Below the pieces are notes generated by a model. That model saw only the letters and a program-made list of their open reading frames with translations. It searched no databases and had not been told where the DNA came from. From the NCBI RefSeq assembly GCF_032062105.1, contig NW_026931770.1, positions 186,001-250,000 of the forward strand: a stretch of DNA of 64,000 nucleotides. Direction: 5' to 3'. Position numbers and translations under genes: made by a program. This document shows, piece after piece, positions 25,701-56,917 of this stretch. The first letter of the stretch is position 1; every line of letters starts with the position of its first letter. The DNA comes from Saccostrea cucullata. Taxonomy: Eukaryota.

Positions 25701-28700
25701 TTCAACAAAAAAGAGAGAAATGACAGAACATGTTAACTCTACTGAATACAATTAAAATATTTGCACAATGAGCACAAAAACAATATCCACTGCAGTTTTA
25801 TTGACAATTTTTTGAAACATTTTGGGTGAGGGTTTTGAAATACCCTCTAAACATGAGCAAAATATATAAATAAATAAAAAATTATGACTGGGTCTGCAAA
25901 ATTCTCTATTAGAATTATGCTCTTAGTTTTCTATACATATCCCAATCATGTTTTAAAGGGGTGGGGTATAATCTAAATAAGAATTCCTTCATGTTTCAGA
26001 TGAGTGAGAACATTGAATAAGGATACTGTCTACGAGTCTGCTGATGATCCGGACGTAATAATCCAGATCTGGATTCCAATCCAGACTCTCCTCGTGAGCG
26101 AATCTCTGGTAATCCTCCGTCAGGAACCAGGAACTCAGCCGGATCTCCTGGTGGGCATCTGATGGGCAACAAATAACATTTTTATGTTATAAAATTGATA
26201 AATGCTTCAATTATACAAGAAATGACATTAACTGCAGGTGCAGGAAAACAATTTTTTAGGCAATACAGTTTATGTCTATGTGTTTCCGTTTTCCTCCCAT
26301 GTCTTGAACTGTTGTAAAATGCTACAGAAATGTGAAATACATAAATACTTACTCCAGATGGTGGTGACCAGCCTCCGTTTGTATGCTGCTCGTTGGACCA
26401 GTATCTTGTGATAGTAATGTAGTGTGTTGTACAGATAGGTGATGGGATGATCTAGTTAAAGAGAGGAACCAACTTCAATTTACAAATTACAATAATCTGT
26501 GTCTCTTACCTTCATTCAAATGACATAATACATTATTAGTACATGTCTAATTAAACTTGAATCCAAACAAAGGTAAAATAAGTTTGTTACTTTTAGTCAA
26601 TCAAACAAGTGTTTGTTCAGCATTTCAATGGCTTAAGATGTATTTTCTGTGCAAGTCTACCAAGTACACTTCCATTCTGCTTTGAAAGTAGTCTTCCTGT
26701 ACATACCGTGAAACTTGTAGAGGACCCCCAGACTCTCCAGGATTTTCTCAAACAGGTTGAGGTTACTGGTGGTGAGGGAGGGCTGCTCTAAAATTCTGTG
26801 TAACAGGATGTCCAGCACCTGTTTAATCATATTAAAATTCTTATATGTAATTCCACGTCTAGGATATATCTACCTGGTAAATGTATCCATCAGTTAGGTT
26901 CCAATACAATAAGTGGGATCATGTTCATATAAACACACAAATGCATGTAAATGCTACAGAATGTCCAACTTTGTAAAAGGTACCACAGTATAAACATTAG
27001 TTTTAAATTCCGTTTTTTTTTTTCTTTAAATTTTTTTTAAAAATTTAAAAATTAATATATTGAAAATATTAACACTAATATTAAAACTAAAATCATATCT
27101 AAAAGCAAACAAACTTACAGGTAAAAATCTAAGACAGACATTCCCAAAATATACTGGCAGATACTGGTGTTGGATAGGACTGTTGAGATCTTGGATTCCC
27201 TCAAAGTAGAACTTCTCAGGATATTTCTGTTGAAATAAAACAATATGGCTAAGTAAAAAAAGTTCCTCATATCCTGTAACGTAAAGACTGTATTTATAAT
27301 CTGTGTCTGATTTACAACCGATATACTAGAAAACAATGACAGTTTTTGGGAGGATAAATATGCACAGTGCATGCATGGAAGTTCATATCAGATGTGAAAA
27401 CAATTTTCAGAAATATTAGGGGCATTGCATGTTTTAACTATTTGAAGTAAATCCCATTGATTTCAAAAACTACAAACAAGTAAACAGTCTAAGAACTAAC
27501 CCTGTGGAAGGCCATGTGTTTCTCATGCCAGTTGCTCTGGAGCCAGTGTTCAGGGGAATTCTATCAAATGAAGAAAATATCTTTAAAGCAAGATTGATCA
27601 AATCATTGCATGTCACTATTTACTTAATCAACATTCTCAACAAATAGTTTTGCAACAATGCCTTGAATAGATCCTTTATTCTAGTTTAAATTACCTCTTT
27701 AACAACAATGCCCTGAATAGATCCCTATTCTCTAGTTCATCTGATACAAACCTCTTTAACAAATTCCTGAACTCTGGATTTGAAGTCCTGTGGTTTTAGC
27801 AGCAGCATGTGGATCAGAAGATAACAAAGACGAGCATCTTCATCTACATTCCTCAGGGCCTGTTTATACATAGAAAGCAGCAGATCAGGACTCAATTCAG
27901 CTAAACACTAACAGAAGAGAAACTTCTCTTACACAAGTAAATCAACCCTTACCAGACAGAGAATCAGCCTGTCTATGGTGACAATGTTGTATCTCCACAC
28001 CATCTCATTTAGAGAGTCAATCGCCTGTCAATTAAAATATATCACAATGTAAGGATAACCATCATTTATTTGTATAGTTTCACATGTAGAGTTTTTCTTA
28101 TGCCTATATGGTTTATTAGAAATACAACAATGAATACTTTGGCATTATTACTTATCAATCAATACAAATAATGATGTGTCTCATTTTTCAAATTTTTTTT
28201 TACAAAATGTCATTTTCATAACATAAAATTGTTATTGAGATCACATATACAAAGATTATACTAGCTAAATTTTAGCTTATCTGATTTTTATGTTTCACCT
28301 TGTGAAAGTGTTGTCCTCCTGCAGAATTGACATTAAGTTCTGACACAATGTAATCTGCAAAAGTTCTCAGATGTGCTGAGACAGCCCGAGGTCCAAGACG
28401 ATCCAAAACCCTACAGAAAATCAAATTCAATCTTCATCAAAGGTATAAATTACTTTAGTTCAAGACTAGTATATCCCTACATGCACACTGTAAAAAGGAC
28501 TCGTCTGAGCTTGAATAAATCCTATGGATCAGTAATATGTGTTGTTGTTATTAACTTACTTATATGCTATGGATGGAACTCGATTCTCTTCTAGCAAAGT
28601 TTTCCAGATAATGCTGTAAATAGATTAATAGTATAAGCTTCAAGGTTCAGGTGGAAGAAATATAATTTTTGTAAAATTTCCATTAACACAGTAAACATAA

Positions 28701-31700
28701 AGCAAATATGTAGTGCATAAGCTGTTAAGCATGTCTTAATTCCATTTATACTGACCATAGGAAAACAGTGGACGATCCTTGCATGGAGAAATGAGCGATG
28801 ATGTCATTCTCATTAGCCATGGCTGTCAAGTAAATTCAAAACAGTATTAATACATGTAGATTTAGAGACAAGTTGTATTTGGTAAAATACTGTCAGCAAA
28901 TAAATAGAATTGCATCTAGTTAAGGGGAGCTAATTAACCTAATGTGAGCTTACTTTTCCATTTTTTGTACTCTGCGTCGACGTTTCTTTTGAGTGTGTTT
29001 TTATCGTCGCGGTGCTGCGGCTGAGATTGGAAGAACTCAGCCAGACTGGAGGGGAAGTTGGCCAGGGTGTTCGGGGACCAGTTGTGGGGCGTGTTAGTCA
29101 TGATCTGATTCAGAATCTCCCTCAACCAGGTGGCTGAAAAACTGTCCACACCTACAACAGGTAATACACAGTGTACATGTACAATAAGTATTTACCTATC
29201 TTTACATGTACTAACATTGTCAATTCAAAAATTCAACACTTAAACAGAGAGACATTAAATTTCTTAATAAAATATAGCAGAAGATCAAAAATTGTATAAG
29301 CCCAGTAATACTTGAAAATAATGCTTTGAATGTGAAGTAAAGTTTTATCTGTACAGATACACCACAGATCATTTGTAAGGTAATTAATGATGTCCTACCT
29401 GTGACATGCATGGCCCGAGCCACTGTGAGAACTAGAGCTCTATTGAGCTCCTCTGACTCATTAGACAGAAACCCCGGTCGTCCCGGCTCGTTAAATATCC
29501 TGGACAGCTGGGGCTGAACCTCAAAACTCCCCAGTCCTGTTATCAACCTCAGGGCAGTACTCTCCATACTGAAAATGAGACATCAATGTCAGCACATTGT
29601 AAGATTAAAACATTAACATTGATAAAAAGGTTTTTCAATTAATGTTAATTAGGTGAGAGTTTTCACTTCTCTGTCATTTTTTTCAGTTGGTTCTTGGTTG
29701 ACTTACCACAGCTGTAGCTGGTTCTGGTTGGTTTGAGCTGACTGGCTGAGGTGGTGTAGGTGGCTCAGGAGCTGTATGCGGTAGTGTGGTTGAGTGTGGT
29801 GGAGGCGGTAGCTGAACATCTCGAGGAGGGTATGAAGAATGCCCCAGGCATTGTGGGTGAACACAGTAGGCAGTAACTGGCCTATCAATAAACAAGGATT
29901 AAAGTTAGGTTTTGTGTGGTGTAGAGTGTCATGTATATTTTACTAATAACACAACGCTTCTACAACCATATTTCTGACGGACATATCTAATTCTTTCCCC
30001 TTGCGACCCATGTTGTTTTTACATAAATTTATCGACAAACAATATAGCAGATGACAAAAATATAGTGACACAATATTTTTGTCATCTGCTATATTGTTTG
30101 TTTTGTTTAACAACTGAATGAACATCAATTTTAGCTATATTACAACACAAAGATAAAAATTTATGAAGGTGTTTCTGTCTTCTTCTTTGCAGTTGATATT
30201 TAAGAAATTATTGTAGGTTTCATTTAAGGCTACATACATGTATATATTACATGAAATATAGTAATCCAAGCGTAAAACAACGCACGCGCAATGCTACCCC
30301 TTTTGAGGTCTGAATCTCCCTATTTTTCATCACAATAGGTTAACATGTATGATTGTGTATACGTCATCAATTTTAGTATTACAACACAAAGATAAAAATA
30401 GAATGGGAAAATCTTTTGTCTAAAAATAGCGCTCAGCCTTTCTTTACCGAATATGCGAGAAAAAGTGACGCGGTTTGTGCGGAAGTGGCTAATAATTATG
30501 TCCCTTGACTGTATGTTTACATTTCATGCTTTATAACTTTTTTCCAAACCATTTCCTGCTTGAGCTACTCACCTCCTGTTTACAATTTAGTTAAATGAAT
30601 GTCTGTGCTACTTACTAATGAATCCTTTGATTCCTAGAGATTCTATTTCCATATACACTAGTAGTCGACTATAAGTTTCTATCAGTGCTGGGGACTGAGC
30701 AATTGTTGCCTTAGACTTGGCCTGTTTTATCACTCGGTGGACTATACTGTGTATTAAGCTGAAAAATTGCAATTACATATTTTGAAAATGAATTTCAAAA
30801 CTTTAAAATTGATCAGCATGTACAGTATTTTTTTTAACACATCCTAAAAATGACTAGAAGTCATCCTTATAAAACAATAACTGGGATTTTTTTTAACAGT
30901 TTGTTATAAGGACCAGTATAAGTAAATAATGTATAATCCATCCATTGCTTAGCAGAGGAACAAAGGTGGAAATTATTTTCTACCACTCCATATTTTCTGA
31001 TACTTGCCTACTTTGTAGTAATACTGACCTCATTTTGGCGTGAACTGTGAGCGAGTCCAACAGACTCATGGCCAGAGGCTGAGTAGGAGCTGAAGCTACA
31101 ATGTTGCCAGGCAACAAAGTCGTGTGTTTATTGTCACCATAGATGCTCTCCACCAGTTTCCCCATTGGTAAATTGAAGAAATCATTGTTTGTACTATCTG
31201 TAATATAAAGTATCTGTGACATTTTTTGGAAATGTGCATTACATAGAAACCATCCCTTTATTTATGAAGTCAATTTAGAGCTACTCACATGCATTACAAA
31301 GGAGAGCAATTTTGTAGTCATTCAGTGAGAGATTCTTGTTGTTCAAACTCTGCTTCAAAAATCTGAAATAAACATTATATAATGTCATTTTTAAAATAAA
31401 TTTACTCAGCTTATATCTAATTCTTATTCAGAAAATATGTATGGCTCGTTTCTAATTTTAAAAAAAAAAATAAATATTTAACAAATTTACTTACTCGCAG
31501 TGTTCTTGTAGGGCATAGGGGATGGGTCGTGGCAGTTTGATGGTGTCTGTCTGGGCTTTCTTGTTAAGGTGTATCCAGATACAGGTGGCGGCCACTCCGT
31601 GGGTGGACTGGGCCTTCATTACGTCAGGCATCATTATCGTCCCCTTGTCTGGGTACAGTAGATCATACAGTTTCATCACCGGAAGGAACTCCTTCAGCTG

Positions 31701-34700
31701 TCAAAGGAGGTCAAGTTACAAGTTAATATCGTTTATTTAGTACCATGGAACTTTAAAGTTTATTTCCACTAGATTCTGCTTTTAAACAGCATGGTCCTAA
31801 TGATGATCATGACTATTAATAAATACATGTATCTGTGGCACAAAGTACATGAACTTTTCTGGCTGGCTTATGCATTGTGATGTAAAAATTTACCATCTTT
31901 TTTTTTAACAAATAGACATTATCTTTTTTGATACTACAGATATAAACAGGAACACACATTTTCACATGTCATTCCTTGTCATCACCTGACATGCAGACAG
32001 ATTTGTATACTATGTATGTTATCTTACCGGATTCTTCTGTATGCTGCCTGATATAAACTGCAGTAGGACCCACATTAAGTGATCTCGACCTTTGTTGAGA
32101 TTGCGACCTTTCAGCTTCAGTAAACAAACAAATATTGTGAATTTATGCATTATATAACTATTTAAGATCAAACATTAAAAATAAAAGAATCAAGATTCTT
32201 GCTTTATATTATTGCACTACAAAGACTTTGTCCTGTGTGAGATGCTATTACCTTCTCATAAAGGGACATAACCATGTGTGGAAAACTGGCAAACTGGAAC
32301 AACACAAAATAAATAACCTGGCTGGATAAATGTTGCCATAACAACTGACTAAGGCATTCATCATTGGCAGCATTATCATTCTCTGACCTTTCCATTGCCA
32401 TGACAACCAGGTCAACCAGCTGTTCCTCCAGAACCTCACATCGCTGCTTCACCTGTTAAAAAATTTAACTAATAGTCCTACACACATGTACAAGTAGATG
32501 TCTTCTCTTTAAAAAAATGATCTTATAGCAAATATTTACTAATGGGTTTTCCCTTTTCTTTTATGTGGGATGGGACACAGTCATTTTTATCAAACAAACA
32601 CAGGGATATAACTTTCTTAAAGCTCAGATATTACACATATACTTAAGAAATGAATTCAATTTTTACCATATTTCATCGTTAGCGCTTCATGATAAATATG
32701 CCGGCGTGAAGCGTTGTAGTTCATATACCTCATGACATTATTTTGCTGATGACCTGCCATAAATTTACGCCGTTCAACTGTCATTTTTAAAACAAAACAG
32801 TGTGCACTATATTTTTTGACTTTCTGATGTCAAGAGTGGTATTATGACGTAACAATGGAGATACTCATGCTTATTTGTGATACATACCTAATGTAGTTCA
32901 TGAGAAAATATTGCATTTTATTTTGTAAAGAATCATAGGGAAAATTTATTGGAAATGTAAATATTGATCAAAGGAAAGTTGATTAAAGCTACTAAAATGT
33001 TCGTTATACATCTCTCAAGGTGTATACCTGCTTATTGAGTCCCAGCATGTTACAGACCATGTCCCTGGAGTACGGCTGTTCTAGTACATAGCGTAACAAC
33101 CCTGTCTGAGGCTCGTACAGTTCCTGTGTAAACAATATACCCATCTAACAAAGTACCCAATACTCCTATTACAAAATAGCTATACATGTATAACAAAATA
33201 CTCTTTGTAACATTATACAGCTCTGTACTGTTTTGCTTAAATTTGCCCTGTTTTAAATACCCCCAGTGAAAGGGGCAGAATTCAAATGAGGGCAGAAGTT
33301 TCCCTGTAAAAACTAATCAACAGACTGAAATTTCATACTCATTTTTATCTTCTCCTTAACCATGTTACTGTATTTCAGATTATTTTCTGACCTTGTCATA
33401 AGGAAGGGGTCCATTGAGGGGAAATTTGAGACAGTTTGAGCTGAGACGCCAAACATTGCTGGTGGAGATGGCGTTAGAATGTCCAACTACAGGTAAGAGA
33501 TGGGAGCGACCTGTCAACATTACAATAAAGAGATCATTGCATTTGAATAACTGTTAGAAAAAGAGGATACAGCAAAACTCGGTTATAAGGCCAAAATAAA
33601 ATTATAGTTTGTTTGGAATTGCCGCCCGCCTCATTAAAATATCCCTCGCTCAAAAAATTTTATTAGCAAAATATTAACAATATTTTTTTTTATCGTTTTA
33701 TCGTCTTACATTGTTTAGTACAAATTAGTTCGTTTGTCAAAATAGTTTTTTAAAGTCGGGTTTGAGCTCACATTAACTTAACAACTCGGGTCAATAAAAC
33801 GCTTTCTTCGTAGTATTTATGATACATGTATAGCGATTATAGGCGGCGATTTGACAAAATAAAAGCCGCCAAAATGTCAGACCATGTTGGAAACATTCAA
33901 GCGTTTTGTTGAAGAGTAGAACATTTATGCATCTCTATAAAAATAAAAGGTGAATAAAAAATTAAATGGAATGATACATCGATATCTTGGAAGAGCTTTT
34001 GTAATAGATTGCACATTGAACTTGATAAGTTAAGTCCGTCATGTTGAAAAAAAAATGATCGTTCAGTTCCCACTTAAAAAATTACATGGATCAGAAACGT
34101 TTTATCCCAAATACTAAATGAAAAGAGATGACAAGTCTTTGAAACGTAATGTGAAAACTGATGCATGGTGAAAACTCGAGAACGTACCAAGCACCCCCTC
34201 CCGGTTTTCCACAAAACACTATATATAGCTATATACCTATTTTTAGCTATATAGGTATTTAAACCTATCATAAATAGCTATATCGACATATTTCGGTTGG
34301 ATGTACAACTTAAAAATAGATTTACTCTTGAATAAAAAATAGTCGCAGCTTAATACTAATCAGGTGTTCATAGTTTGGAACTTTACTCACATACGTCATA
34401 ATTATGTTATATAAAAGAGCCGCGTTTGTTTGCAATTATCAAAAGAAAAGAGAAAGGAAGAATAAAGAAGATGACTTACTTGCCTTTGTAGAGGTAAAAT
34501 GACTTATTTTCTTGTTTTCATAAAGAAATTACAATGTGAACTTCCTATAAAACTTCCATTTTTTCGTGCAGCGGAAATGATCACTGCGCGGTAGTTGCAG
34601 AGTAAAGGCGATAAAGTTTCAGAAGCCGGTTTTCATCATCGAAGTATGGAAGCCTAATAACGCTATATGTAATTAAATGTAAAGTTAGTAAAACCTGCAT

Positions 34701-37700
34701 ATGTGGAATTAAGAAATGAAATTAAGTATATATGAAATTGTTATTCATGAAAACAGGCGTAATTAAAGATATATTGACATATTAGACCTCTTGTTTAAAT
34801 TTTGAAAGGATAAAGGACATGGGAAAATGCCCACCCCTCCCTTTACTACATTTTTAAAAATATGAATACTAAATGCAAACCGTTATATTTTTCGGTTTTA
34901 AATTTAATAATAATAGGATTGCAGTGTTCTAATTAAATAATAAAATTAATCCGCCTTACTGCTTCTGAATATAGTAAAAGACCCATGGGCCTTTTTGCTC
35001 ACCGTTTGCAGAATATGAAAGCCTATTTTTTTTTACAGGTATGCCTGTATGCAGCTGTAAATCGCACAGCGATAATAGCGCTGCTGTATACAAGATTTCC
35101 AGTAAAAAATATAAAAAATGTGTGATACAGGCACTTATAGAAAATAAAGTGTTATCAGATAAATCAACATATCTTTGTACAACATGTACAAGTGAGTGCT
35201 TGAAAACTATAACTGACGAGCCAGTAGTTAAGGCAGTAGAAGAAGTTGTAAAACTTATTGAAGAGAAAAAATTATCCGCCAGGGACAAAAAAAGACTTTT
35301 GCGTGCTTTATTACAAGATGAGAAGATGTCCATTGAAGATGATTCTAAACATCTATCTTCCAAATACAAAGATACACAATATTTATCTTCATTAGACACA
35401 AAAAAATGGTTATTAGACAGAAACCATATGGTTATACAGTTTCTCTCTGTCATATCGGGAAGAAAAATCCAAGACTTGACTGAAAAACAGACAGCAGCCT
35501 TCATTTTTGCTGTAGAGCAAATATATTCACTTGTTACCTCAAACCTAATTTTACCTCTTACATTTAGTAAGAATTTACTATCTTAACAAAGTAGATCCAT
35601 CTGCAGTATGAATTCTGTAGCAAGTCCTGGTGGTAGTTACCAGTCCATAGTGTCATGGATAGCCCAGCAGGGAGGGGATCCAATAACCATTAGCGGTGTT
35701 GAGGACGTTCTCACATTTTTTGATAACAATCAGATTCTGACAAGGAGATGGCGAGTTAATTATGACAATAAAACTATTTTATCTGCAATTACGACCGTCG
35801 TTCATTTATTTCCACACAATCTTTCCTACTTGCAACAAAACCCCCATCTCTCACCAAGACAATGGCTGTATCCAAAGAACCTATCTTCACAAATTAGCAA
35901 TTTTTCCAAGTATCTAGATAAGTTCGGAAATATATTCCAGGAATTACGATTGCAATTTGTGGAGTCAAGATTGGAGAAGGTGTACAAGAGCCATACTGAT
36001 GGACTGACAGGACCAACAGACACCATCGAGGAAGGCGTCAGAGGCAGGAAGCGAAAGAGGGAGGAAGAATTACCAAATACTACTTCAAGAGTACAAGAAG
36101 ACCCTTATAGCTTCGTAGAGCACAATCACCCAGGTAAGCAAAAAAATAATAATCGTTGAAATACTACTTTATGGCACAGATATTTTTACAAACATCTTAT
36201 AAAGATTACCAAGATAACTTTATAAAATATACTCTCTATGCTTCCATAGAAATTGAACTGGAAGATGCGGATTCGCCCTCCTCCGGCTCAATTATTTAGT
36301 TTCAATGTGTCATATCCGGTGCAGACATTCTTCAAAAGAGCATCGAAGCAGTCGGTGAGTTTTTAGCATGTTCATTCATTGTTTTTAATACATATGTCTT
36401 AAAATTGTACCCTACTCGATGATTATTTCATTCACATCAATATTTTAACGACCTATATTATCTAAACGCGACTCTTATGTGTGATATTATTTGCTATGTA
36501 GGTGCTGATTGATGTCTAAAAAAAGAAAATATCTTACCATCTTGCGATTCTACAGCCGCCAAAAAAAACGCTCGAGATATCCGATGATATGTCGATATAG
36601 CTATTTATAATAGGTTTAAATACCTATATAGCTAAAAATAGATATATAGCTATATATAGTGATTTGCCTGGACCTGATTCCTAAGAAATTTTGTGTGGTT
36701 CAAACTGTTTGCAAGAATTGTCTTAACAAAGGGGTAAATTTCAAAGAGAAATACTACGAAATAGACTGATAAAAGTATTGTTTAATAACGATTCTTAAAA
36801 TAAACCAGAAGTTTGGTTCTGAAATTTAACTATTAATAAATGAACAGATCTTAACATCTAAATGAGATGAATATTTGAGTACCGTTCTGTGTATATCTTT
36901 TTTTTCAAAATCGGACCAAATATTATTAATAAAATAAAAGAAAGAGGATAATAAATGGAAATTACCCCTGTTCATTGAGATTTTATTTTTTTTTTCATCA
37001 TTTAGCTTCAGTTTGTAAAAAAAAATAATAATAAAATCCCTCCCTCCCTCCTGGGTCTGAAAACCCCCAGGCGGCAATTCCAAACAAACATTTTTTTAAC
37101 GATGGCCTAACGAAGTCGCTGGAACCTATGAAATTACTTCGCTATATCCGTAATTCATTATAACCCTATAAGAAATTAATTAAATTTATATAGCTGGGGA
37201 TCCAAGATGACTTCGCTATATCCGTGAATTGGCAATATCCGTGTTCATACTAAACGAGTTTTACTGTATTAGCTTTCTTTGAAAAGGGGAAAAATTTAGC
37301 CTACATCCTTTTCCAAAATCAAAAATATTGAGATTTCAGAGTTCAAAGATCAAACAATCAAAAGTGGTTTATATTTAATATCAACAAATATTTATCACAG
37401 AGCTGTTTTTACATTTTATCATTTAACAGCTCATTTGTAATCATTTACTCTAAGCTCTAGCAAACATATGCAAACAATAATTACATATCAGCAAAAAATA
37501 ATTATTTACCAGCAAATAACAATTACTTACCAGTAAATAATAATTACACTTACCAGAAACTGTGACCATTTGAGCTGCCGGACGAAAGCTATGTACAAAA
37601 TCAGCGAGGATAGACCCCATCTTCTACAAACAACATTTATTTCATATGTACATGAATGTTTCACAACACCAAATCAAACTTTTATATACAGCAGTATATG

Positions 37701-39506
37701 GCAAAACAGAATCCACCTTTTTAATTCTTAATAAGTATACATCAACTTTACAAAATATACTGAATATATAAAAAGTACATCCTCCCTTAGTATTACGTGT
37801 TTAAGCTATCACTTTTCTGAATTCTTACCCAATGTGGCCATTTTTTGTCCTCAGGACAAACTTTGTTGATTTCATTGACAGCCAGATACGCCGGTAACAG
37901 ACAGACATTCCGATCAAGGATGTGAGCCACTAACTAAAGTAAAAAAAAAAAATCATGTTTAATTTCTAGATGTATATAACCTGCATTTAAATTTTTCATG
38001 TTGTACTCAATTTTCTACTGCTTAAATTAACTCCATAGAAAAAGAAATGAAATGTCTTACATTAATAAAAGATGTTTCCATATCTGGTAAGCAAGGCCAA
38101 AACATTTTATATTTACATGTACATTGTCATGATATTGTATTGGCACAGATACCTACATTTACTGCTGTATCAACGTCTGGCATGACCGACACATTTTCAT
38201 CCTGCTTCACTCCCTGGCATTTCTCTAAGATTCCACGCAGCAAATCTCTACATCCCTATATAGTAAAAGCAATCACTAGATATCAGAAAATCTCTACATT
38301 CCTAAAGTAAAAGTGATCACTAGATATCAGTAAATCTCTACATCCCTATAGTAAAAGCAATCACTAGATATCAGAAAATCTCTACATTCCTAAAGTCAAT
38401 CTCTTTATCCCTATAAAAGTGATCACTAGATATCAGTAAATCTCTATATCCCTATAGTAAAACCAATCATTAGATACCAGAAAATCTCTACATTCCTTCA
38501 ATAAAACAATCACTAGATATCAGTAAATCTCTACATCCCTATAGCAAAAGCAATCACTAAATATCACTAGATCTCTACATTCCTATAGCAAAAGCAATCA
38601 CTAAATATCACTAAATCTCTACATTCCTATAGTAAAAGCAATCACTAGATATCAGTAAATCTCTGTATCCCTATAGTACATGTAACAGTTAACACTAAGT
38701 GTCAGTAAATCTCTACACTTCTAACAGTAAACACTAGATATCTACATAAAAATTTTTGACTGGAAAAGAAATCTTTTAATCTGAAATTTGACTTGTCTGT
38801 TCTCACTTTGTAGTCTACTCCACCAATAATTTTCCTCATCAGCTGGAATGTTTTGGTCCACATAAGACTGGCCTTGTACTGCAGGAGTTCATGTTCTAAC
38901 AGAGCATCACATATCGGCCTAAAATAAACATACTCAGCACTGCATCAATATAATTCTATCAATGGGAAACATTTTAACTGATAACTTATATTAAAGTATT
39001 TCTAAAAAAATCATTGCTTGAATGGAATTTAATTTAAAAATGCAAATTGCAATTTCTTGGAATCAATCTTTGGTTCAAGTGTTGACCTAATTCTTCAGTG
39101 AGGATGACCTACTTAGCAGGGACAATGTTGTTCTCCACCAAGGCTTCTAACAGATCGAGCAGCAGGTCTACTCTGGTGGCATTCTGAATACCATAAATCT
39201 GTGTGATGTAACATTTCAGAGCTGTGTCTAGGCTCTCCTGTATGATAAGAACTTAAACTGTATTGCTTGTATTATTCTTCAAATATATTTTTGAATTCCT
39301 ACAAAATAAAACTCAAATGTTCTTTTTGATACTTCACATTTGTACACAAAGTTATTAAAGATCTTTTTCGCATTGAGATTTTTCACCTGAGGGAGACTGG
39401 CTAGGGCTGTTTTGAGGCTGTTGAAGCAGTGGTCTTTCTTCCATTGTGCCGTTTCCTCAGTGTGTAAAATCACGGAGCAAAAGGCTTCTTCTACAGCTTC
39501 ACCACG
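22713..39506 (-). CDS. MED23: Mediator subunit 23, ~30 exons; native ATG exon not found
   Basis: Continuous homology from RGEAVEEAF (39506) through IIGGVDYKG, QRCEVLEEQLVDLVV, LWQHLSSQ, MESTALRLITGLGS, YLPVYFGNVCLRFLP, DWRFNEF to YHIKYMFVGD; stop at 22713. Confidence 0.95.
22873..23022 (-). other. U12-type GT-AG intron (last intron of MED23)
   Basis: 5' GTATCCTTT, branch CCTTGAC close to the AG; restores DFL-YHIKY. Confidence 0.9.
23475..23675 (-). repeat. ~31-bp tandem repeat spanning a MED23 exon end and donor
   Basis: 6-7 copies of GACAGTTATCTCAGCTCAATGT|GTAAGTATA; functional donor at 23650. Confidence 0.85.
23922..25102 (-). mobile_element. Helentron-type non-autonomous element (HINE) in a MED23 intron
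   Basis: ATACGCCCGTC at the left end; GACAGACG microsatellite and hairpin TACGTCCCGTC-CTAA-GACGGGCGTA plus an A-run at the right end; internal ~150-bp repeats. Confidence 0.75.
25615..26026 (-). other. U12-type GT-AG intron in MED23
   Basis: 5' GTATCCTT, branch TCCTTAAC just upstream of the AG; restores LVD-TIDGKSPFPNCDWRF. Confidence 0.9.
29950..30512 (-). mobile_element. 5' remnant of a Tc1-like transposon
   Basis: Minus strand starts TA|CAGTCAAGGGACATAATTATTAGCC; truncated N-terminus MGRKGKELDMSVRNMVVEAL typical of Tc1 transposases. Confidence 0.65.
33589..37107. mobile_element. 3.5-kb DNA transposon, GGCC termini, TAA TSD (Zator- or Harbinger-like ends)
   Basis: TAA|GGCCA...TTTGTTTGGAATTGCCGCC and GGCGGCAATTCCAAACAAA...TGGCC|TAA. 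Confidence 0.8.
35039..36133 (+). pseudogene. Large exon of a transposase-like gene with one in-frame stop
   Basis: ORFs 35041-35586 and 35608-36159 share a frame; acceptor TTTTACAG at 35038 and donor CAG|GTAAGC at ~36134; Cys/His clusters, GGSY..., LTFFDNNQ, NLS-like RGRKRKR. Confidence 0.55.
38242..38745 (-). repeat. ~44-bp tandem repeat spanning a MED23 acceptor and exon start
   Basis: ~11-12 copies of ACTGATATCTAGTGATTGCTTTTACTATAG|GGATGTAGAGATTT. Confidence 0.9.
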
Positions 39507-40194
39507 CTAAAAACAGGATTCATCATCAATGTAATTTTTTACAAAGTTCAGATCAAAACTAGTGAACATTTAACTATTAGGATATTTTAGTTACATTTTT
39601 GATAGACTGGATCAAATTACCATAATGGAATATTACAGCATATCAATGGGAGACAAATTTATAACAGTAATATTTGCATATTCACTGCTCTCTCCCATTA
39701 TGAACCTGCAGGCTTAATTATGCGAGACAGTGTGCTATGCGAAAATTTAATTCTGCGTATAATATTATTCCTTGAATGCTTTTTAAAAATGCTACTCAAA
39801 CTCGTGTAGCAATAACCACAATTCGCGAAAATTTTGTCTCGCTAATCAAGCTCTCCTACAATCATGTTCTGTAGTATTAGGATATTTTAGTTACATTTTT
39901 GTATATATATAATGGAATGTTTTGCAAAAGGAATAAATATACATGTAATATATTAAGTTGAAGTTGAATGTATAACAAATTTTCAATTGACAAGCTGTTT
40001 AAGCTATTTACATGCATTTCCTACAACCCTCCAGTTTGCTATTGAGATTTAGATTTTCTGGGAACGCATCATCTATGTTCAAGCAAAAAAAATTATTTAC
40101 CAAAAAATTTTATTTTGCAGATAAACAATATGTTTATAGCTAAATATTTTTGTTGTCAGCCGATTAAACTTTTTAAAAACCTTGGAGAGAACTG

Positions 40195-40335
40195 CCATAT
40201 TTTTATTTTTTCCTCTCTCGTTACATTTGGTGCTGTGCCATACCCTGGAACTGACAAGTGAGAGGACTGCCAGGGATAACTCTTCAGACTAGGAGGGAGG
40301 AATGGGCAGCCGGGTTTTAGTGGCCAGACATTGGT
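40195..40335 (+). mobile_element. TRIM remnant: LTR end, PBS, short internal region, PPT
   Basis: ...GTTACA-TT-TGGTGCTGTG (tRNA-His-like PBS)...AGGAGGGAGGAA-TG; internal part resembles 57640-57680. Confidence 0.55.
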
Positions 40336-40559
40336 AAAGCAAAAAAGCAACATTTCTGCAACGCTCACACCGTAAAACATATTACACGGTAGTAGTTAGT
40401 ATAGATCCGTGAGTATATGGTATAAACTTTTCCCAAACTGCATCATAGGAAAATTAATATAATTCATTTATTGAAAAATCATAATTGGCATATAGTCATG
40501 AATACAACAATTAACATACATATAAAATATCAAAGAAAGCAGGTTTTTGCCTTTTTTCA

Positions 40560-41445
40560 AAAATCAAATAGTGTTAAATTATTGATTTTTGTCAATAATA
40601 GGGTTTCATGTAACATTGTGCATTAAATATATCGTAATATTGTAATCTACATTGATCATAACTGACAATGAAAATTTTCAATAAAAAATTTACAAAAAGA
40701 CATACACATTTTTCTCTAGGAATAGGTGGCCGACTCCCCATTTCAATATGTAGTGTATCCAGATAAATGTGTTTAAAAGGCATATACTTTTGTTATTTAA
40801 ATTCATTTGTCAATTTATACTATAAAAAGTTAATTTCCAAGAATTTGATTTAGAAATGTTCTTTAATTGTTCACTGATTTTGTTTTATATGCTAATTTAT
40901 GTTTTGATTTTTGATATGTAATGAAGATAAAGATAGTTTCTGTTGTTGAGTATAAAGTTTTGTTTGCCAAGATATTCTAGACCCCAGTGTTTTATCTTAA
41001 TTAAATGCAGACACCACTAATTGGTCATTATGATCATTTTCTCTCTCTAAGTTTTTCAGTCTGAAATAAAATCTATACATATTTTCATAACACAAATAAA
41101 ATAGTGGGAACTGTCCCAACTCATATAGAACAGCAATATTAGATGATTTTCTATGAACACCCAAAATGTCTTTAAAAATCTGGAGTTGTATTTTTTTTCA
41201 AATGGGAAATGATCTGAGGATAATAAATCACATTTGTAGTCTGCTATCCAAATTTCGTAACCATAAGTTAAGATTGGAGTAATCATAGATCTATAAAGTT
41301 TAAGCATTGTCTTGACAGAAAAATTTGTATCATGGAAAATTGCTTTTAATAGCATAATAAGAGCAATTGCTGAGAATTTCATTTTTCGCCATGTTAAACA
41401 CTAGTCCCAAATATTTATACTGTTTTGTTATTTCTATACGGCTAT
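40560..41445 (-). mobile_element. Decayed CR1/L2-group LINE, 3' fragment
   Basis: YKYLGL.., MLKLYRSMITPILTYGYEIW, with frameshifts. Confidence 0.7.
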
Positions 41446-41447
41446 GA

Positions 41448-42452
41448 TTATAGCGAGCGCAGCGAGCATCGCGAAGCGAGCTCAATAGACTAACGTGTAT
41501 GAACAGAGGAAATTCGGATTAAAATCTGTACATACATCAGCCAAATTTCTCTGTGAAACATTCCCAGAATTCCTGCACTACCCAATGTCCTTTGCGCAAA
41601 TAAATAAATAATAACGTACGTAAAGCATAAAAAGACTATCAGTTAGTAGAAATCTTTCAAAGAAACAAAAAATAACTCTACAATGTTTTTCAACCAATAT
41701 TGCACTAGGTCTATAGTTTCAAACAGACGCTCAGCTGTCTCCGTTAGCTCCGACGAGCTCCGTGACGTCAAGTGACGTCACAGCTAATCGAAATGTCTCG
41801 TGCGGCTTGATGTTTGAAGTGGCTGATCAATTTTTAGAGTGTTTTTGATGGTACAACTGTGCTCACCCCAACGGTCACACCGTAAAACATATTTGAATGT
41901 TTTTTTTTTTCAAGCAATAAAAAGATGTATGAAATAGAATGCCAATCATGCAAAGTCAACTTATTAAACAAATGTTAATATACCCCCCCCCCCCCCCCAT
42001 CATCTCTTGATTAACACATATTTCTTTATAGCGAGCGCAGCGAGCGTCGCGAAGCGACGCTCGTAACTGCGAGCTCTAACGACAACGCCTGGGCGAAGAG
42101 AAAATTCGGTTACTGCACATTCATTCTTCAGAATTTTTTGCTGCAGTAATTTTGACCCACAATGCATCACTTAGCAAAGTTGCGTTCTCGCGAGAATGAC
42201 GGCAAATGTTCAACAAAAAGTTTACTCTTCTTGATTAAATGGATAAACATTGAAGATAAATTGTAAACGTATATTTTTTCATTAACTTTCAGCACTGTTC
42301 AGTTTTTTCTTGGTATTTGTAACTTACATACGACGTCATGTGACGTCAGAGTTTAGACGCACCAAATGTCACGTGCGGTTTGACGAGCCCGATCTTAATT
42401 AAAACAATAGAAGAGTTTGCGCTCGCTCTAACGGTCGCACCGTCAACATATT
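41448..42452 (+). mobile_element. Two adjacent HINE copies (~41448-41893 and ~42024-42452)
   Basis: TTATAGCGAGCGCAGCGAGC start, subterminal inverted GCGCTCGCT, 3' hairpin ACGGT-CGC-ACCGT; a third 3'-end remnant at ~40360-40385. Confidence 0.75.
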
Positions 42453-42552
42453 ATTATATCTATTAAAAACAGTACTAAAACAGTAAATTTCTATGCTTTT
42501 GTTTGAGACAATTATTATCAATCTTGCCAGATACTTTGATTAAGTAACAAAC

Positions 42553-42682
42553 CTTTTAGACCTGGATCATCGTCTTTCGATCTAATTTTTTTTATTCTTA
42601 CAGTTTTCCCGCTAAGAGTTGATAAAATTAAACGCTGTCTAAAGTAATTACAACCTTCAAAAGTAACCGTATTTCCACTCAT
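42553..42682 (-). CDS. RCL1: First coding exon of RNA 3'-terminal phosphate cyclase-like protein; remaining exons not found
   Basis: MSGNTVTFEGCNYFRQRLILSTLSGKTVRIKKIRSKDDDPGLK then a phase-1 donor AAAG|GTTTGT. Confidence 0.88.
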
Positions 42683-42954
42683 ATTAAATATTTTTGTTGA
42701 CAGCACGTGCTAGTCAATGTTAAATACTGTCTTCCATACAATTTGACAAAGCGCCTTAAATAAAGTGCACAGATGACCAAGTACGAAATATAGTCGTAAA
42801 ATAACTTCTAATACAGAAGAGTTCTACTTTCACATTTGGTCAGCACTTTTTTCTGTTACCGACGTAACATGACAGATTTGAAGTTATGTATTGCATAACC
42901 CACGGTAACAGTCCTCTGAAATTTTTTTCACTAAATTAGTGATACATTTTAAAG
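42683..42954. promoter_or_regulatory. Bidirectional promoter RCL1/ERCC8 with an E-box
   Basis: Divergent ATGs 272 nt apart; CACGTG at 42704-42709. Confidence 0.7.
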
Positions 42955-45320
42955 ATGTTGAAGTTCCTGAAAGCCAGAGAAAATGGTATAGATGACCCTG
43001 TTATCTTGAGACGTACAGAATCAACAAAGCGAGCCTACTCATTAGAACTGAGCAAGCACAGGGACGTAGAGTGTGTGTTTTATGGTGGAATTAATTCACT
43101 TGATATAGATCCAGTTGAAGCAAGATAGTAAGTTTTTATGTGTACTCCGAATACACAGGTTAACACAGTACTAAGTTTGAACTTTTTAACAACATTTTAT
43201 CACAATAATGTAAAAGTGACAACAGATTAAATTGTTATTATCCATTTTTAATTAGTTTGCTGTCAGGGACAGTTGCTGGAACCGTTCACATACATGATCT
43301 AACAAACCACTCTGGTCAGGTGAAGTACACCACCAAAGCCATTTGTAACATCAGTCGCTCTAGTCCTTATAAACACAAACATAGTGTTGAAACTGTCCAG
43401 TGGTACCCTTTGGATAGTGGAATGTTTCTTTCCAGTGGAACAGACAAGACTCTAAAAATATGGGACACCAATAGTATGAAGGTAAATTATCATTTAATTT
43501 GGATAGGGGGGAGAGAGAGAATCTAAGAGAGAGATAATATTTAAACCAGAAGCACACATGCATTCAGATCACTCACATATTTGATACTTCAATAGGGCTG
43601 TTCAGTACCTATAATTGATTCTTTCCTTCTTTTATCCTCAGCCAGCAGATGAGTATGAGTTCAGTGGTATCGTGTACAGTCATCATATGTCTCCTGTAGC
43701 TACATCACATTGCTTAGTGGCTGTAGGGTGTCACAGTTCTACTCTGAAGTTAGTGGACCTGAAGTCTGGTTCTGCAACACACATGCTCAAAGGGCATAAA
43801 AAGTCAATCCTGGCAGTCAAGTGGTCAACCAAAAATGAATTCTTACTGGCATCAGGCAGGTTAGTGTAAAAAGATCCAGTAATTTGATGACATCACTAGA
43901 TTGTATTTGATTCCATATTAAACTTTGATGAAGTTGAAATTTTTCCTTGATGATACATTGTATTTGATTCAATCTTAAATTTTTGTTTTGTTTGTATTTT
44001 CAGTGAAGACAACAGAGTACATTTGTGGGATATTAGAAGTTCAAAGGGTTCCTTAATGAGTCTAGACCAATTCAATGGACAGGAAGTTCCAACTTTACTT
44101 AGTGGTAAGTTTCAGATACTTGGCCGGTTGCCGGTTCTTAGGGAAAACACTGATTATTAGAAAGAGTGCTGAGATAGATAAAATGACATATTGTTAAAAA
44201 TAAATTGCATTATATTTGTAATAGGTTCTGTAATGATCATTTTAAAATCTCTAAAATTAAATCTTGTTAAATAATACCAATTTTTAAGGACAAATCACTG
44301 AATTTTCGTCTCGCAAAAATTTCCACTTATACAGTGTATTCAATACTATTCATTCTTCCAAGACTATATAGTTACTGTAGATCACTAAATTTTTGCGACA
44401 CCTTATTTTCGCGAGATTGTCATTGACTCTTAGTAAGCGAGACATAATTTTCACGAATAGTTGTTATTCCTCTATATAATCGTAAGGAATACTTTTAAAC
44501 GCGAGAATCAAATTTTTGCGAACACATTGTCTCACGTAATTACTCAAAAATATATTTCTCGCGAATAATAAGTGATTTACAGTAATAACTTTGGAAGAAA
44601 GAGTTTTAAGAAGACATGATTTTTAAATCCTGGTCCAATATGCCACCTCTTGTTACACATGTTGTCCAAATGCCCTCTTATTTAGCACTACAAACAGGAT
44701 CCAATTCTGAACCAAAGATAAAAAATAACCAACAAAATCAATCTTTTTTGCAAGATTTGAAATGTTTTGTGAATAAATTGATATGGAGTTTCCCCTAATT
44801 TGTTCTTTTTTTCTTTGAAGCTTGCACAGCACACAGTGGCCATGTAAATGGCATGTCCTTTACCATGGATGGACTCTACTTGGTGACCTCTGGTACAGAC
44901 AACAGAATGAGACTTTGGAACATTGACACAGGAAGAAACACTTTAGTAAATTATGGAAAAATTCAGAACGAGACAAGAAAATCCTTACAATTGGCAGTTT
45001 CTTGCTGGTGTAAATCAGATTTAATTTACATTCCGGATGAATACTGTAACATACAGGTTTACGAAATGTTTACGGGAAGGAAAATCGACACCCTCCGTGG
45101 ACATCTTCAACAGGCCAACTGCTGTGTGTTTCATCCGGATTATCAGGAGTTGTATAGTGGAGGAAACGATCGTAACGTCTTAGTATGGGAACCGGAATCT
45201 GACGGAGCTTACGACAGCCATCTAAAGGAACAAAGTTCAAAGAAACAAACAAACAACAGAAATTTTGTGAGTAGAATAGCAGCTACTGCCGATGCATGGA
45301 GTAGTGATGAAGAAACTTGA
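42955..45320 (+). CDS. ERCC8: DNA excision repair protein ERCC-8 (CSA), WD40 repeats; 5 exons
   Basis: Exons 42955-43127, 43256-43481, 43642-43859, 44004-44104, 44821-45320; [11 protein letters not shown].., [30 protein letters not shown]-terminal DAWSSDEE. Confidence 0.96.
44373..44584. mobile_element. TA-flanked MITE (further copies at ~53180-53361 and ~53710-53923)
   Basis: TACTGTAGATCAC...GTGATTTACAGTA. Confidence 0.75.
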
Positions 45321-54186: not shown

Positions 54187-56267
54187 ATGAATGAAAATAA
54201 TGACTCAAAGAAGCCAAAGTTGGATCTAGGATCTGGCGATGATGAAGATTGCCATGATAGTGATGTCGATTTTAAGTTTAGCAACGAACTTGCACTGGAA
54301 AAAATGTAAAAGAAATCATAAATCTAATATTTTAAACTCTAGATTAACAGCTGTAAAAAATGATGAATGAACAATGGATTAAAAGGAAATGAAATATCTC
54401 TTTACATCTTAGCATGAGAAAGTTGATACATAAGAAGGACTGTTTGACATATATTTCATTATTTATAATTGTTTTTTCTAGACGACAATTACAGGCGAAG
54501 TTTTGCAAGGAGAGAAATTGGGACCAGTTTCACAAACCTAGAAATGTTCTGCTTGCTTTAGTTGGGGAAGTAGGGGAGTTGGCAGAAATATTGTAAGTGA
54601 TTATGAAAAAGGTACTTTATCTATTTGTTTCCACATTTTGGCAGATTAATAGGAATGATATGATTTACCATATATATTTGCATGACTAAACTCTGCAGGC
54701 ACAGATCCAGGATTTTTTTCCGGGGAAGGGTTCTTCCTCAGTCAAAAAAAATTAAATCCATCATGTGTATGATTTTTCATTTCAACAGGAGTCTGCATTT
54801 TCTAAAAAAGGGGGGGGGCAATGTCACTTTTAGTAGCTTTTAATAGTATACACATGTGATAATTTGTCAAATTCTTGCCTGCCCTTTCTAGATCTGTGCA
54901 AAGTTTGATATTTTAAAAATTAGCATCCTCTAAACCAGTGATTAAGTCAAAATGAGTTGAAATCCCTGTTTTATGCTGCTGAAATCAGAGATTCTTGTGC
55001 ATGAAATTTTTGCTCTCTTTTTGCCTGAAAAATTGGCTATATAACCTTAAAATGGTTTATGTTAGGGCTTCATATCAATCATATTCAATGGTTTGGGTCA
55101 TGGATATTGGCCTGGGTAGCTCAGTGTTCGGAGCAGCTGACTAGTAATTCAGGAGGCATAGCTTCCAATTCTTGTCTGGTCCATCACATTTTCCCCCCAG
55201 GCACGGAAGACCAGAGCATTCAGACAGATTACAGGTAGCCAGATATCTCGGATGGAAGAGCATCTGATACATGTATGTGATTCAGGGGACCCAGGTTCAA
55301 ATCCTTGTCTGGTCTCTCACAGTTTTCTTTAGTTACACATATCTCACATGCATTTCTTGTGACGTTTCATTTTGGTACCAACAAGTCCTAGTTTGAGTGT
55401 GTTTGACTGTCTTTTGAATAATTTGAACCTTGGCTATGAGCTGCAATACAGGGATATCAGTGTTTCACAAACATGTCGTAACATGCTTTCATTTCTGGAC
55501 TGTTTTTTGGGCTCTTGTACCTCTTCAAAATGTTCAAAACATTTAGGGATGTGATTTTGGCTATAAATTTATATTTCAGTCAGTGGAAAGGTGAAGTTAG
55601 TGTTGGAATTCCAGGTGAGTACAATTTATTAGATACTTACCTATTATATACAGGGAAATTTTCACCCCTTTTTATTTTTATCACCCCTTTTATCCTTGTC
55701 ACAAGTGGGCTAATTTAAAACAGTGAAGTTTAAGAAAGTATAATTTCTAATACAGAACTGTGAATAAGCGAACTTAAAACTGAGCAAAACGGTACGCAAG
55801 TGTAAAAGGGTGAAATTAATTAACACAGGGTGAAGATAACACAGTATACAGTATCTAGTCCTTGTTATGCCTATGGGGACATCGGGCAAGGACTAGACTT
55901 CTTCACTTCTCTCTGTATTCCTTAATTTTTTGGATAACATATAAATAATACTTTAGATCTTAAAACTTAGAAGAAACAAATCAAGATTAAATTAACAATA
56001 TAAACCATTGTATGAAATATGAAATCATATTAAACTCCATTAACAGAACTCAGTGTTAAAGAGAAGGAACATGTGGGACAGGAATTGAGCGACATTTTGA
56101 TCTATCTCGTCCGATTAGCAGACAGATGTCAGATAGATCTACCGTCAGCCGTGCTACAGAAAATACACCAAAACGGACTCAAATATCCCGTACAGAAGGT
56201 CTACGGCAAAAATAACAAATACACTGATTATGTTACAGAGAGCAAGGAAGATGAAGAAAGAACTTGA
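54187..56267 (+). CDS. DCTPP1: dCTP pyrophosphatase 1 (MazG-like), form A
   Basis: Exons 54187-54305, 54482-54592, 55580-55614, 56047-56267; ERNWDQFHKPRN, GEVGELAEIFQWK, ELSDILIYL, N..KYP. Confidence 0.93.
55105..55340 (+). mobile_element. Degenerate tRNA(Thr)-containing TRIM (fuller paralogous copy at ~57545-57925)
   Basis: TAGCTCAGTG..GAGCAGCTGA-CTAGTAA-TTCAG and a second tRNA-like unit with GGTTCAAATCC; the paralog keeps the internal region and a purine tract. Confidence 0.55.
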
Positions 56268-56917
56268 TAATCATGACCAACAGAAAAAGAACATCTCAAG
56301 TATTCAGATGTAGTCCAAAATTGTAAACTAGTTCTACCAGTGAAATGGGAAACATAGAAACAGACAATCATTGAAAGCCGTAGTGGACACTGCATCATTT
56401 TTAATTAATAGTTGATGTTCAAATATTTTTGTTGATTGTTAGTTGTCATGAAATTTATGAATCATTTATGTAGCTATCACATGTAAATAATTTTTTATAA
56501 TTAATTATCAAAACACAGAGTAAGTAAAATTTTAACCCCTCATTCTTATCGTGTATCCTTTTTTATGTCAGTGCATTCTCAGCATTATGCACCAAATCTT
56601 CATAGGGAGTGTTTCATGAGCTCTGATTTGAATTAATATTCAGTATACAACACGGTTTGAAGTAATGGTTTGTGAGAAGACTTTTTGCAGATGTCATAAT
56701 TTTTTTACTAATTCGTAATTATTTCCTCTTTGAGGTAGGTGTGACCCTTCATTTGAACAAACTTGAACCCCTTTTAACCAGAATGACTATGTGGCAAGTT
56801 TGGTTGAAATTGGCCCATTGGCTTTTAAAAGAACTTGAAAATGTTAAAATTTTTTTAGCCTTCAGCACAGGTGAGCATATAACCTGAACTCGGGGGAGTT
56901 TTGTGTTACTGATTAGT

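Follow-up and report, generated by a model that had tools for sequence, protein, structure and literature searches.

We identified an intact ERCC8 (CSA) gene, a single exon of RCL1, and all but the start of MED23 in a 64-kb window of the Saccostrea cucullata RefSeq assembly (the window being the whole stretch of DNA analyzed here). The ERCC8 coding region (42955-45320, forward strand) has five exons in an unbroken, intact 405-codon frame, located by tblastn to the full-length homologue P0170 and by WD40 matches. RCL1 exon 1 (42553-42682, reverse strand) lies head-to-head with it, with 272 nt between the two ATGs, which agrees with the bidirectional arrangement described in the initial annotation; ERCC8 homologues sought for synteny comprised two oyster-like fragments. 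RCL1 exon 1 precedes the body of MED23 on the same strand and in order, as in a gene fusion, and about 3 kb of repeats lie between them.

The RCL1 exon is 130 nt long, begins with an ATG, and is intact but orphaned, with a phase-1 donor (AAG/GTTTGT) after 42553. Its residues are identical to those of Ostrea edulis RCL1 (43 of 43) and nearly so to those of S. echinata (42 of 43); compared with oyster RCL1 (PF01137 and PF05189), the exon is thus 98-100% identical, and nothing follows past residue 43. When seven full-length RCL1 proteins were compared with the 64 kb by tblastn, exon 1 alone matched (E-values of 1e-21 to 8e-12; next best 0.68), and the rest of RCL1 was not found in the window; the initial annotation had likewise seen no later RCL1 exon in the 42 kb downstream. 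Likewise, with S. echinata RCL1 cut into 18 consecutive 20-residue pieces, two matched the window (scores of 107 and 96) and the remaining 16 scored just 19-37. The RTC profile is covered at positions 2-38 of 221 rather than over the whole RTC domain with its insert. The 98 nt ahead of the first repeat (42455-42552, reverse strand) are likely the 5′ part of RCL1 intron 1, which is 180-183 nt long in three read-through records of another oyster (the three read-through frames have no exact match in the sequence collection). Metagenome scans returned 11 RCL1 loci, none with more than 78% identity and none with MED23 nearby, and no match for the MED23 start.

MED23 homology begins at a phase-0 acceptor (TTTTTAG/CGT at 39506), and 32 exons follow in frame down to 22716: exon 2 (39387-39506, reverse strand), which is the first MED23 exon present and is also found in record 16 of a transcript contig from a related oyster (run X7), and exons 3-33 (22716-39237, reverse strand), which are intact. 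Exons 2-33 share 1316 of 1332 residues with S. echinata (98.8%), and the Pfam profile PF11573 matches with 1789 bits over positions 16-1304, with positions 3-15 missing. Compared with MED23 of other oysters, what is lacking is the native 18-codon first exon, and here too the initial annotation was right. This exon is present in five other oyster species, belongs to the Pfam Med23 profile (the match runs from position 3 with it and from 16 without it), and can be aligned with the human protein from residue 4 onward. Among the 15 listed members of the MED23 cluster, 10 (from the five species) begin with the native exon, four are partial, and only the S. cucullata model differs (12 of the 33 cluster members are named, and one model among these is from S. 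cucullata). In the window the native exon is absent from both strands, with a best score of 31-32; true orthologues score 72-78 against each other, and the best scores of 100 shuffled peptides averaged 27 (maximum 37). As a displaced exon 1, a peptide resembling the start at 25820, in a MED23 intron, was rejected because its score of 28-32 falls inside the shuffle range. Short proteins with the native MED23 start were just two M. gigas partial models among 70 candidates.

Spliced, the window reproduces RefSeq XP_062571466.1 (P0033) exactly, with 33 exons and 1375 of 1375 residues. The first exon of this model (40353-40225, reverse strand) is a filler of 43 residues with an ATG start, taken from repeat DNA; it has no Pfam match, it ends in T, and its donor score of 2.6 is below those of 29 of the 31 true MED23 donors.

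The roughly 3 kb between the two genes, initially annotated as mostly TE debris, are high-copy repeat DNA: in 17 of 18 bins across 39560-42475 the contig depth in DNA run X1 was 158-31,492, compared with 1.7-11 in the adjoining MED23 exons and introns (these values are summed contig depths, not copy numbers). From the RCL1 side, the first repeat is a high-copy HINE-like element (element A, 42026-42454, forward strand) with 10-nt subterminal inverted repeats (10 of 10 positions complementary), a 5′ hairpin and a 3′ palindrome; a 132-nt spacer with G and A runs follows (41894-42025), and then a second HINE-like element (element B, 41448-41893, forward strand) whose ends are related to those of element A and whose 3′ subterminal repeat is degenerate. 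The left-end hairpins of the two elements have predicted energies of -18.3 and -9.0 kcal/mol, and both right ends form a palindrome with a 5-bp stem and a 3-nt loop. Next come medium-copy repeat DNA (40384-41447, internal bins at depths of 158-1716), part of which is probably a LINE remnant (41059-41382, reverse strand; a weak match, 27% identical across 33 aa, to the decayed LINE of the window), and a third repeat (40046-40383, forward strand), which contains the RefSeq filler exon and has the same 25-nt palindromic end (40359-40383). Of the three related HINE ends reported initially, two belong to whole elements and the third is just this isolated end. The remaining stretch (39507-40045, reverse strand) is likely the 3′ part of MED23 intron 1: the bin at 39884-40045 has a depth of 7.6 between flanking bins of 5290 and 18,919, and a high-copy insert (about 39602-39874) is flanked by a perfect 27-nt direct repeat. 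Element A resembles Cg_HINE of Crassostrea gigas (PMC7492417) in its subterminal inverted repeats, 5′ hairpin, 3′ palindrome and high copy number; unlike Cg_HINE, where a left-module microsatellite and a central tandem array are common, the elements here are only about 430-450 nt long and showed neither (none was found by Tandem Repeats Finder in 39.5-42.5 kb). We call elements A and B HINE-like, a label by anatomy that assigns them to no family. Rfam gave 0 matches. The 132-nt spacer was also considered as a remnant of RCL1 intron 1, which would have placed the breakpoint; it did not score above controls, 8 to 26 of the 31 MED23 introns scoring equally high.

Taken together, the join of RCL1 to MED23 probably reflects an error of assembly, with a break in a single chromosome copy as the other possibility, rather than a working hybrid gene; between them, these two explanations very probably account for the locus. 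We lean toward the first, in which the assembler joined RCL1 intron 1 to MED23 intron 1 within the repeats; an assembly collapse between repeats was also among the options of the initial annotation. The RCL1 promoter, exon 1 and the start of intron 1 would then have been fused to the end of MED23 intron 1 and exons 2-33 by a jump between related repeat copies in the two introns, with the switch point probably somewhere within 40046-42454; the animal would have normal RCL1 and MED23 genes, and the linking pieces would be on other contigs or dropped. The switch from one locus to the other does lie inside high-copy repeats, and parts of RCL1 are found elsewhere in the annotation of the species, with no intact model of RCL1 or MED23 among the named cluster members. 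Two S. cucullata RCL1 models (among the named cluster members, 9 of 25) are on contigs of 184,244 and 14,985 bases, compared with 494,957 bases for the contig of the MED23 model. They lack the 5′ exons, starting at RTC profile positions 61 and 125, and they differ from each other at 5 of 248 residues, as expected of unmerged haplotypes. In the model on the 184-kb contig, an unrelated 31-residue N-terminus replaces exons 1-2, and exon 2 is missing from the window and from both 3′ models. Among the named cluster members, neither RCL1 exon 2 nor the native MED23 exon 1 could be placed elsewhere in the annotation of the species. Searching with RCL1 exon 1 gave 20 matches from 22 candidates, none of them a further full-length cluster from this species. 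RCL1 is essential in yeast (PMC4150785) and Med23 is needed by mouse embryos (PMC7642510), so intact copies, missing from this annotation, are to be expected in the animal. The filler N-terminus of model P0045 was also sought in the window, where it has no match.

Chimeric contigs and haplotigs are documented for oyster assemblies in two studies (PMC7718752; 10.1101/2022.08.29.505626). As in those studies, we observed a heterozygous, repeat-rich oyster genome, two differing RCL1 3′ copies on separate contigs and an abrupt change of locus within repeats; unlike there, where linkage maps or read depth from the same animal were used, the case here is made from gene anatomy and relatives, and both loci appear to be on one chromosome. 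If the assembly is in error, as seems likely, the finding flags a fault in a public reference: the RefSeq MED23 of S. cucullata carries a spurious N-terminus of 43 residues derived from repeats, none of the listed RCL1 models is complete, and the gene order across 39.5-42.5 kb is not trustworthy.

Some observations count against a mis-join. The window has no N and no frameshift across 38 mapped exons, and the repeats are short enough (0.4-1 kb) to be spanned by long reads. In addition, in each of four other oysters (M. gigas, C. angulata, C. virginica and O. edulis) the two genes are on sequences of equal length, which we take to be one chromosome. Oysters have ten chromosomes; a random jump between repeats would land on the same one about one time in ten, which favors a real intrachromosomal event over a mis-join. 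We therefore regard it as quite possible, though short of probable, that the join is real on one chromosome copy only, recombination between repeats of the two first introns having likely broken both genes while the other copy is intact and provides their function. With the same reserve, the event would be an inversion, a large deletion or another intrachromosomal rearrangement, and transcripts of the allele would mostly be out of frame, with a stop after 45 codons. Oysters have 3-13% structural heterozygosity, enriched in transposons including HINEs, according to the first part of the results of 10.64898/2026.02.10.705023, and the 31-residue N-terminus on the 184-kb contig is what a reciprocal junction might give. 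The junction resembles the variants described in that part in lying within HINE-like (non-autonomous rolling-circle) and other repeats, whereas those variants are insertions and deletions, about 80% of them below 1 kb, and here a large rearrangement would have to disrupt two conserved housekeeping genes in a single event. One would also expect an intact haplotype, yet no intact model is listed, and the missing RCL1 exon 2 means that a clean reciprocal inversion does not explain everything. The initial annotation had proposed a haplotype deletion; a rearranged haplotype stands as a possibility, but a small local deletion is less likely, since RCL1 and MED23 of S. echinata are on separate scaffolds (19.7 and 5.6 Mb) and the RCL1 3′ part is on the 184-kb contig. 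The accession numbers of RCL1 and MED23, a weak guide to how far the genes lie from each other, differ by 374 to about 5,000 in three species and also fit such a deletion poorly. Coordinates for the two genes were sought in the supplements of PMC12144841, PMC9351233 and PMC11556341, with no row found, and in a full-text search, likewise empty. A true heterozygous allele would be a concrete, genotypable case of repeat-caused genetic load in oysters, with two housekeeping genes broken.

We consider it most improbable that RCL1 has a giant first intron which encloses MED23, NEK8 and an E2 dehydrogenase gene, its remaining exons lying past the left end of the window, and that MED23 begins at the filler as a new first exon within the repeats. 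The ATG exon of the RefSeq model would suit such an arrangement. Against it, the contigs with the RCL1 3′ models differ in length from that of MED23, the intron is only 180-183 nt long in another oyster, and the filler lies in high-copy repeats and lacks any Pfam match; its donor ranks below 29 of the 31 true ones, and its last base is T, whereas the X7 contig shows G.

The initial annotation also pointed to an internal donor (ACT/GTAAGA, 42596-42604, reverse strand) after RCL1 codon 27, at 42602, which is indeed in phase 0, while the normal RCL1 donor joins MED23 exon 2 out of frame, with a stop after 45 codons. The internal donor is a plausible splice site, in the annotation's favor: it scores 7.4, compared with 6.1 for the normal donor, and beats 14 of the 31 true MED23 donors. 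Unused sites of equal strength number five in 3,708 nt of MED23 exons, one of them in phase 0, and the chance of such a phase-0 donor in a 130-nt exon is about 4-6%. With MED23 exons 2-33 intact, the ERCC8/RCL1 bidirectional promoter could drive MED23, with 27 RCL1 residues replacing the native 18-residue start. We find this productive chimera very unlikely, and equally so the history it would have, in which a pre-existing codon-27 donor rescued the frame after a recent repeat-mediated rearrangement, leaving a housekeeping fusion as a natural polymorphism. The GT of the donor begins the codon for Val28, a residue found in five of the six aligned RCL1 proteins that are intact (the exception, S. 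echinata, has Leu), and codons 28-43 are identical in residues to O. edulis with the normal donor intact, showing no relaxed constraint on the skipped part; this counts against the chimera because splicing at codon 27 would free residues 28-43. The RefSeq model at the locus uses the filler and not RCL1 exon 1, and a fixed chimera would deprive the species of an intact RCL1 at the ERCC8/RCL1 promoter. Polymorphic gene fusions from structural variants (for example PMC11077074) likewise place a promoter and 5′ exon ahead of another gene's body on the same strand, but here no junction transcript was found and the normal donor is out of frame. Only if junction reads 42602>39506 exist would the locus be a natural case of a Mediator gene that has captured a promoter and exchanged its first exon. 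Under a mis-join, the 42602 donor would be an unused cryptic site formed by ordinary RCL1 codons.

We compared 24 sequencing runs with the window by shared words; none is from this species, and none reached half (best 0.20). The depths and joints given here come from four of the 24. Among the pieces listed from DNA run X1 (not this species), none spans the gap. The RCL1-MED23 junction was not seen in three RNA or RNA-like runs of related oysters (depth in X22 is just about 1-5x at exons, too shallow for junctions to show, and X11 has no MED23 cover), and the 15 joints listed, of 59, include none between RCL1 and MED23 exon 2. The MED23 transcript contig in X7 has a 69-nt upstream exon ending in G, which fits the native exon (54 coding and 15 leader bases). 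With splicing from 42602, two bins of RCL1 exon 1 should show depths of 4.4 and 4.1 and the last base should be T; the observed values are 8.34, 0 and G. The final G and the lack of any depth across the 5′-most third of the RCL1 exon exclude this donor for the X7 contig; together with the native exon in five species, the filler in RefSeq and the unchanged codons 28-43, this speaks against the chimeric or shared first exon that had been suggested. The normal donor predicts 69 letters (8.47), out of frame. The depth of 8.34 in the 3′ portion of this exon of RCL1 equals that of 68 letters of the MED23 contig (8.343-8.363), an unexplained coincidence that could be read in favor of the chimera.

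RCL1 exon 1 (42682-42553, minus strand; 130 nt, with a phase-1 donor) lies head-to-head with the five intact exons of ERCC8, with 272 nt between them, and is the sole match in the window of seven full-length RCL1 proteins; when the S. echinata RCL1 was cut into consecutive pieces, 16 of the 18 had no match anywhere in the 64 kb. Both searches agree with the initial annotation, which had this exon intact opposite ERCC8 and the later RCL1 exons missing. The two S. cucullata RCL1 models listed (P0045 and P0047, both 3′ models) sit on contigs of 184,244 and 14,985 bases (the MED23 contig has 494,957 bases) and start, by profile match, at RTC positions 61 and 125; exon 2 is absent from the window and from both models. 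They are distinguished by 5 of 248 residues (three close to the C-terminus) and on sequence would be alleles or recent duplicates. No intact S. cucullata model of RCL1 or MED23 was found among the named cluster members (9 of 25 for RCL1 and 12 of 33 for MED23).

MED23 starts at the phase-0 acceptor of its exon 2 (39506), and the 32 exons from there onward are intact. The oyster MED23 cluster has 33 members, of which 15 are listed, and ten of these have a common 18-residue start, with M. gigas, C. angulata, C. virginica, O. edulis, and S. echinata represented; four of the others are partial and one is the window locus. The best window score for this native segment is 31-32, as against 72-78 between species, and is within what 100 shuffled versions reach (mean 27, maximum 37), so MED23 does begin as abruptly as had been described, without its native first exon. 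The segment is alignable to human MED23 from residue 4, the Pfam MED23 match begins at position 3 with it and at 16 without it, and the folded N-HEAT domain (residues 1-220), as given in PMC6107663, covers it; by sequence comparison, the missing segment is conserved.

The RefSeq MED23 model of this locus (P0033, XP_062571466.1) has zero mismatches to the window over 33 exons and leaves RCL1 exon 1 unused. Its first 43 residues come from repeat DNA at 40353-40225 (minus strand), which we read as a filler exon, picked because the true first exon is missing: it has no family match in the profile search, its donor scores below 29 of 31 true MED23 donors, and the resulting N-terminus is likely spurious. 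The Pinctada imbricata MED23 (P0027) also has an unrelated N-terminus ahead of the exon-2 sequence; thus, a short MED23 exon 1 may often escape annotation.

In the DNA run X1, summed contig depth is 158-31,492 in 17 of the 18 bins across 39560-42475 and 1.7-11 on MED23 exons and introns (a large contrast, although this depth is no copy number), which bears out the earlier description of the 3 kb between the genes as mostly transposon debris. From the RCL1 side, 98 nt of unique RCL1 intron are followed by HINE-like element A (42026-42454), a 132-nt spacer, HINE-like element B (41448-41893), another repeat of about 1 kb with a probable LINE remnant (a weak match), a third repeat with the same 25-nt palindromic end as elements A and B, and ~540 nt that likely belong to a MED23 intron and contain one insert. 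Element A shares subterminal repeats, a hairpin, and a 3′ palindrome with Cg_HINE but, unlike it, has no tandem array (PMC7492417). The high-copy insert of ~270 nt in MED23 intron 1 is flanked by a perfect 27-nt direct repeat (39575-39601 and 39875-39901), unusually long as a target-site duplication. Since RCL1 intron 1 is only 180-183 nt in another oyster (three read-through records), exon 2 ought to lie close to element B. The switch between loci likely lies in 40046-42454, and an attempt to localise it within the gap gave no placement; no X1 piece across the gap is among those listed.

The junction most likely stems from the assembly or from a single broken allele. The RCL1 half and the MED23 half meet within repeats, and we somewhat favour a mis-join of the two by the assembler; this would account for the lost exons, the dispersal of RCL1 over several contigs, and the filler exon, and the animal need not carry a doubly broken allele. 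Oyster assemblies are known to contain chimeric contigs and haplotigs (PMC7718752; 10.1101/2022.08.29.505626). RCL1 is essential in yeast (PMC4150785) and Med23 is required for mouse embryos (PMC7642510), findings that concern yeast and mouse, not oysters. A real heterozygous rearrangement comes close to the mis-join and is a tentative second reading: the window has no gaps and reads cleanly, RCL1 and MED23 lie on one chromosome-length sequence in each of four other oysters, and structural heterozygosity of 3-13%, enriched in transposons, is reported for oysters in 10.64898/2026.02.10.705023. A small local deletion fits worse, because RCL1 and MED23 of S. echinata sit on separate scaffolds (19.7 and 5.6 Mb). 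A nested arrangement we regard as very improbable.

The initial annotation had also proposed a working RCL1-MED23 chimera, through an in-frame donor after RCL1 codon 27 (ACT|GTAAGA, 42602). The normal RCL1 donor does frameshift MED23, as claimed: the resulting frame stops after 45 codons, and Met next occurs at native residue 119. The 42602 donor is in phase 0 and is a credible splice site, scoring 7.4 versus 6.1 for the normal donor on a matrix from 31 MED23 donors (true donors span 0.5-10.3, leave-one-out). Unused exonic sites scoring as high number five per 3,708 nt, one of them in phase 0, which puts the chance of such a site in a 130-nt exon at ~4-6%. The GT of the 42602 donor opens the Val28 codon; of the 6 intact RCL1 proteins aligned, 5 have Val at this position, and the sixth, from S. 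echinata, has Leu, no codon of which starts with GT. Residues 28-43 match O. edulis throughout, next to an intact normal donor; continued splicing of this exon to RCL1 exon 2 would predict such conservation, and so would a very recent join.

A transcript contig from a related oyster speaks against use of this donor. The best of 24 listed runs shares 0.20 of the window's words and none reaches half; four of the 24 were compared with the window, all from related oysters. Run X7, which differs from the window at 15 of 359 exon bases, has a MED23 transcript contig (4,378 nt) that aligns to exons 2-4 from its position 69, matching G at 39507. The in-frame donor predicts T there and a depth of 4.1 in bin 42638-42799, and X7 shows G and 0, which excludes that donor for this contig. 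Of the three options first raised, mis-join and rearranged haplotype stand, and the productive chimera is improbable. The 69 upstream letters have a final G, and their length and ending suit a 15-base leader followed by 54 coding bases whose last codon is for Leu, from which we infer native MED23 exon 1 with its leader. In bin 42476-42637, X7 reaches a depth of 8.34, and 68 letters from the MED23 contig would contribute 8.343-8.363; this match is a coincidence without explanation, and we count it against our main reading. A normal-donor join predicts 69 letters (8.47), by the cutting rule of the other two joints, and is out of frame; none is among the X7 joints listed (15 of 59), though lower-depth joints appear there. 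We take the 8.34 depth as a putative separate partial RCL1 contig. Depth at exons is about 1-5x in the raw RNA run X22, and MED23 cover is absent from the further run X11.

We did not find the RCL1/MED23 junction described: judged by title and start of abstract, none of the three papers matching RCL1 with MED23 dealt with oysters, and the best 10 of 107 matches on oyster gene fusion lacked the word oyster.

Elsewhere in MED23, most of the 4-kb intron at 37554-33510 is filled by a 2.45-kb element (34212-36666), probably a non-autonomous DNA transposon, whose 80-nt terminal inverted repeats are 96% complementary, and a 44-bp tandem array of ~10 copies occupies 38238-38678, also in a MED23 intron. 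A MazG-like (DCTPP1-like) gene is partially duplicated in tandem (55017-56853 and 57462-61585, 74-81% identity), the second copy seemingly without its first exons, and a decayed LINE retrotransposon with frameshifts and a DUF6451 match lies at 900-3800 (minus strand).
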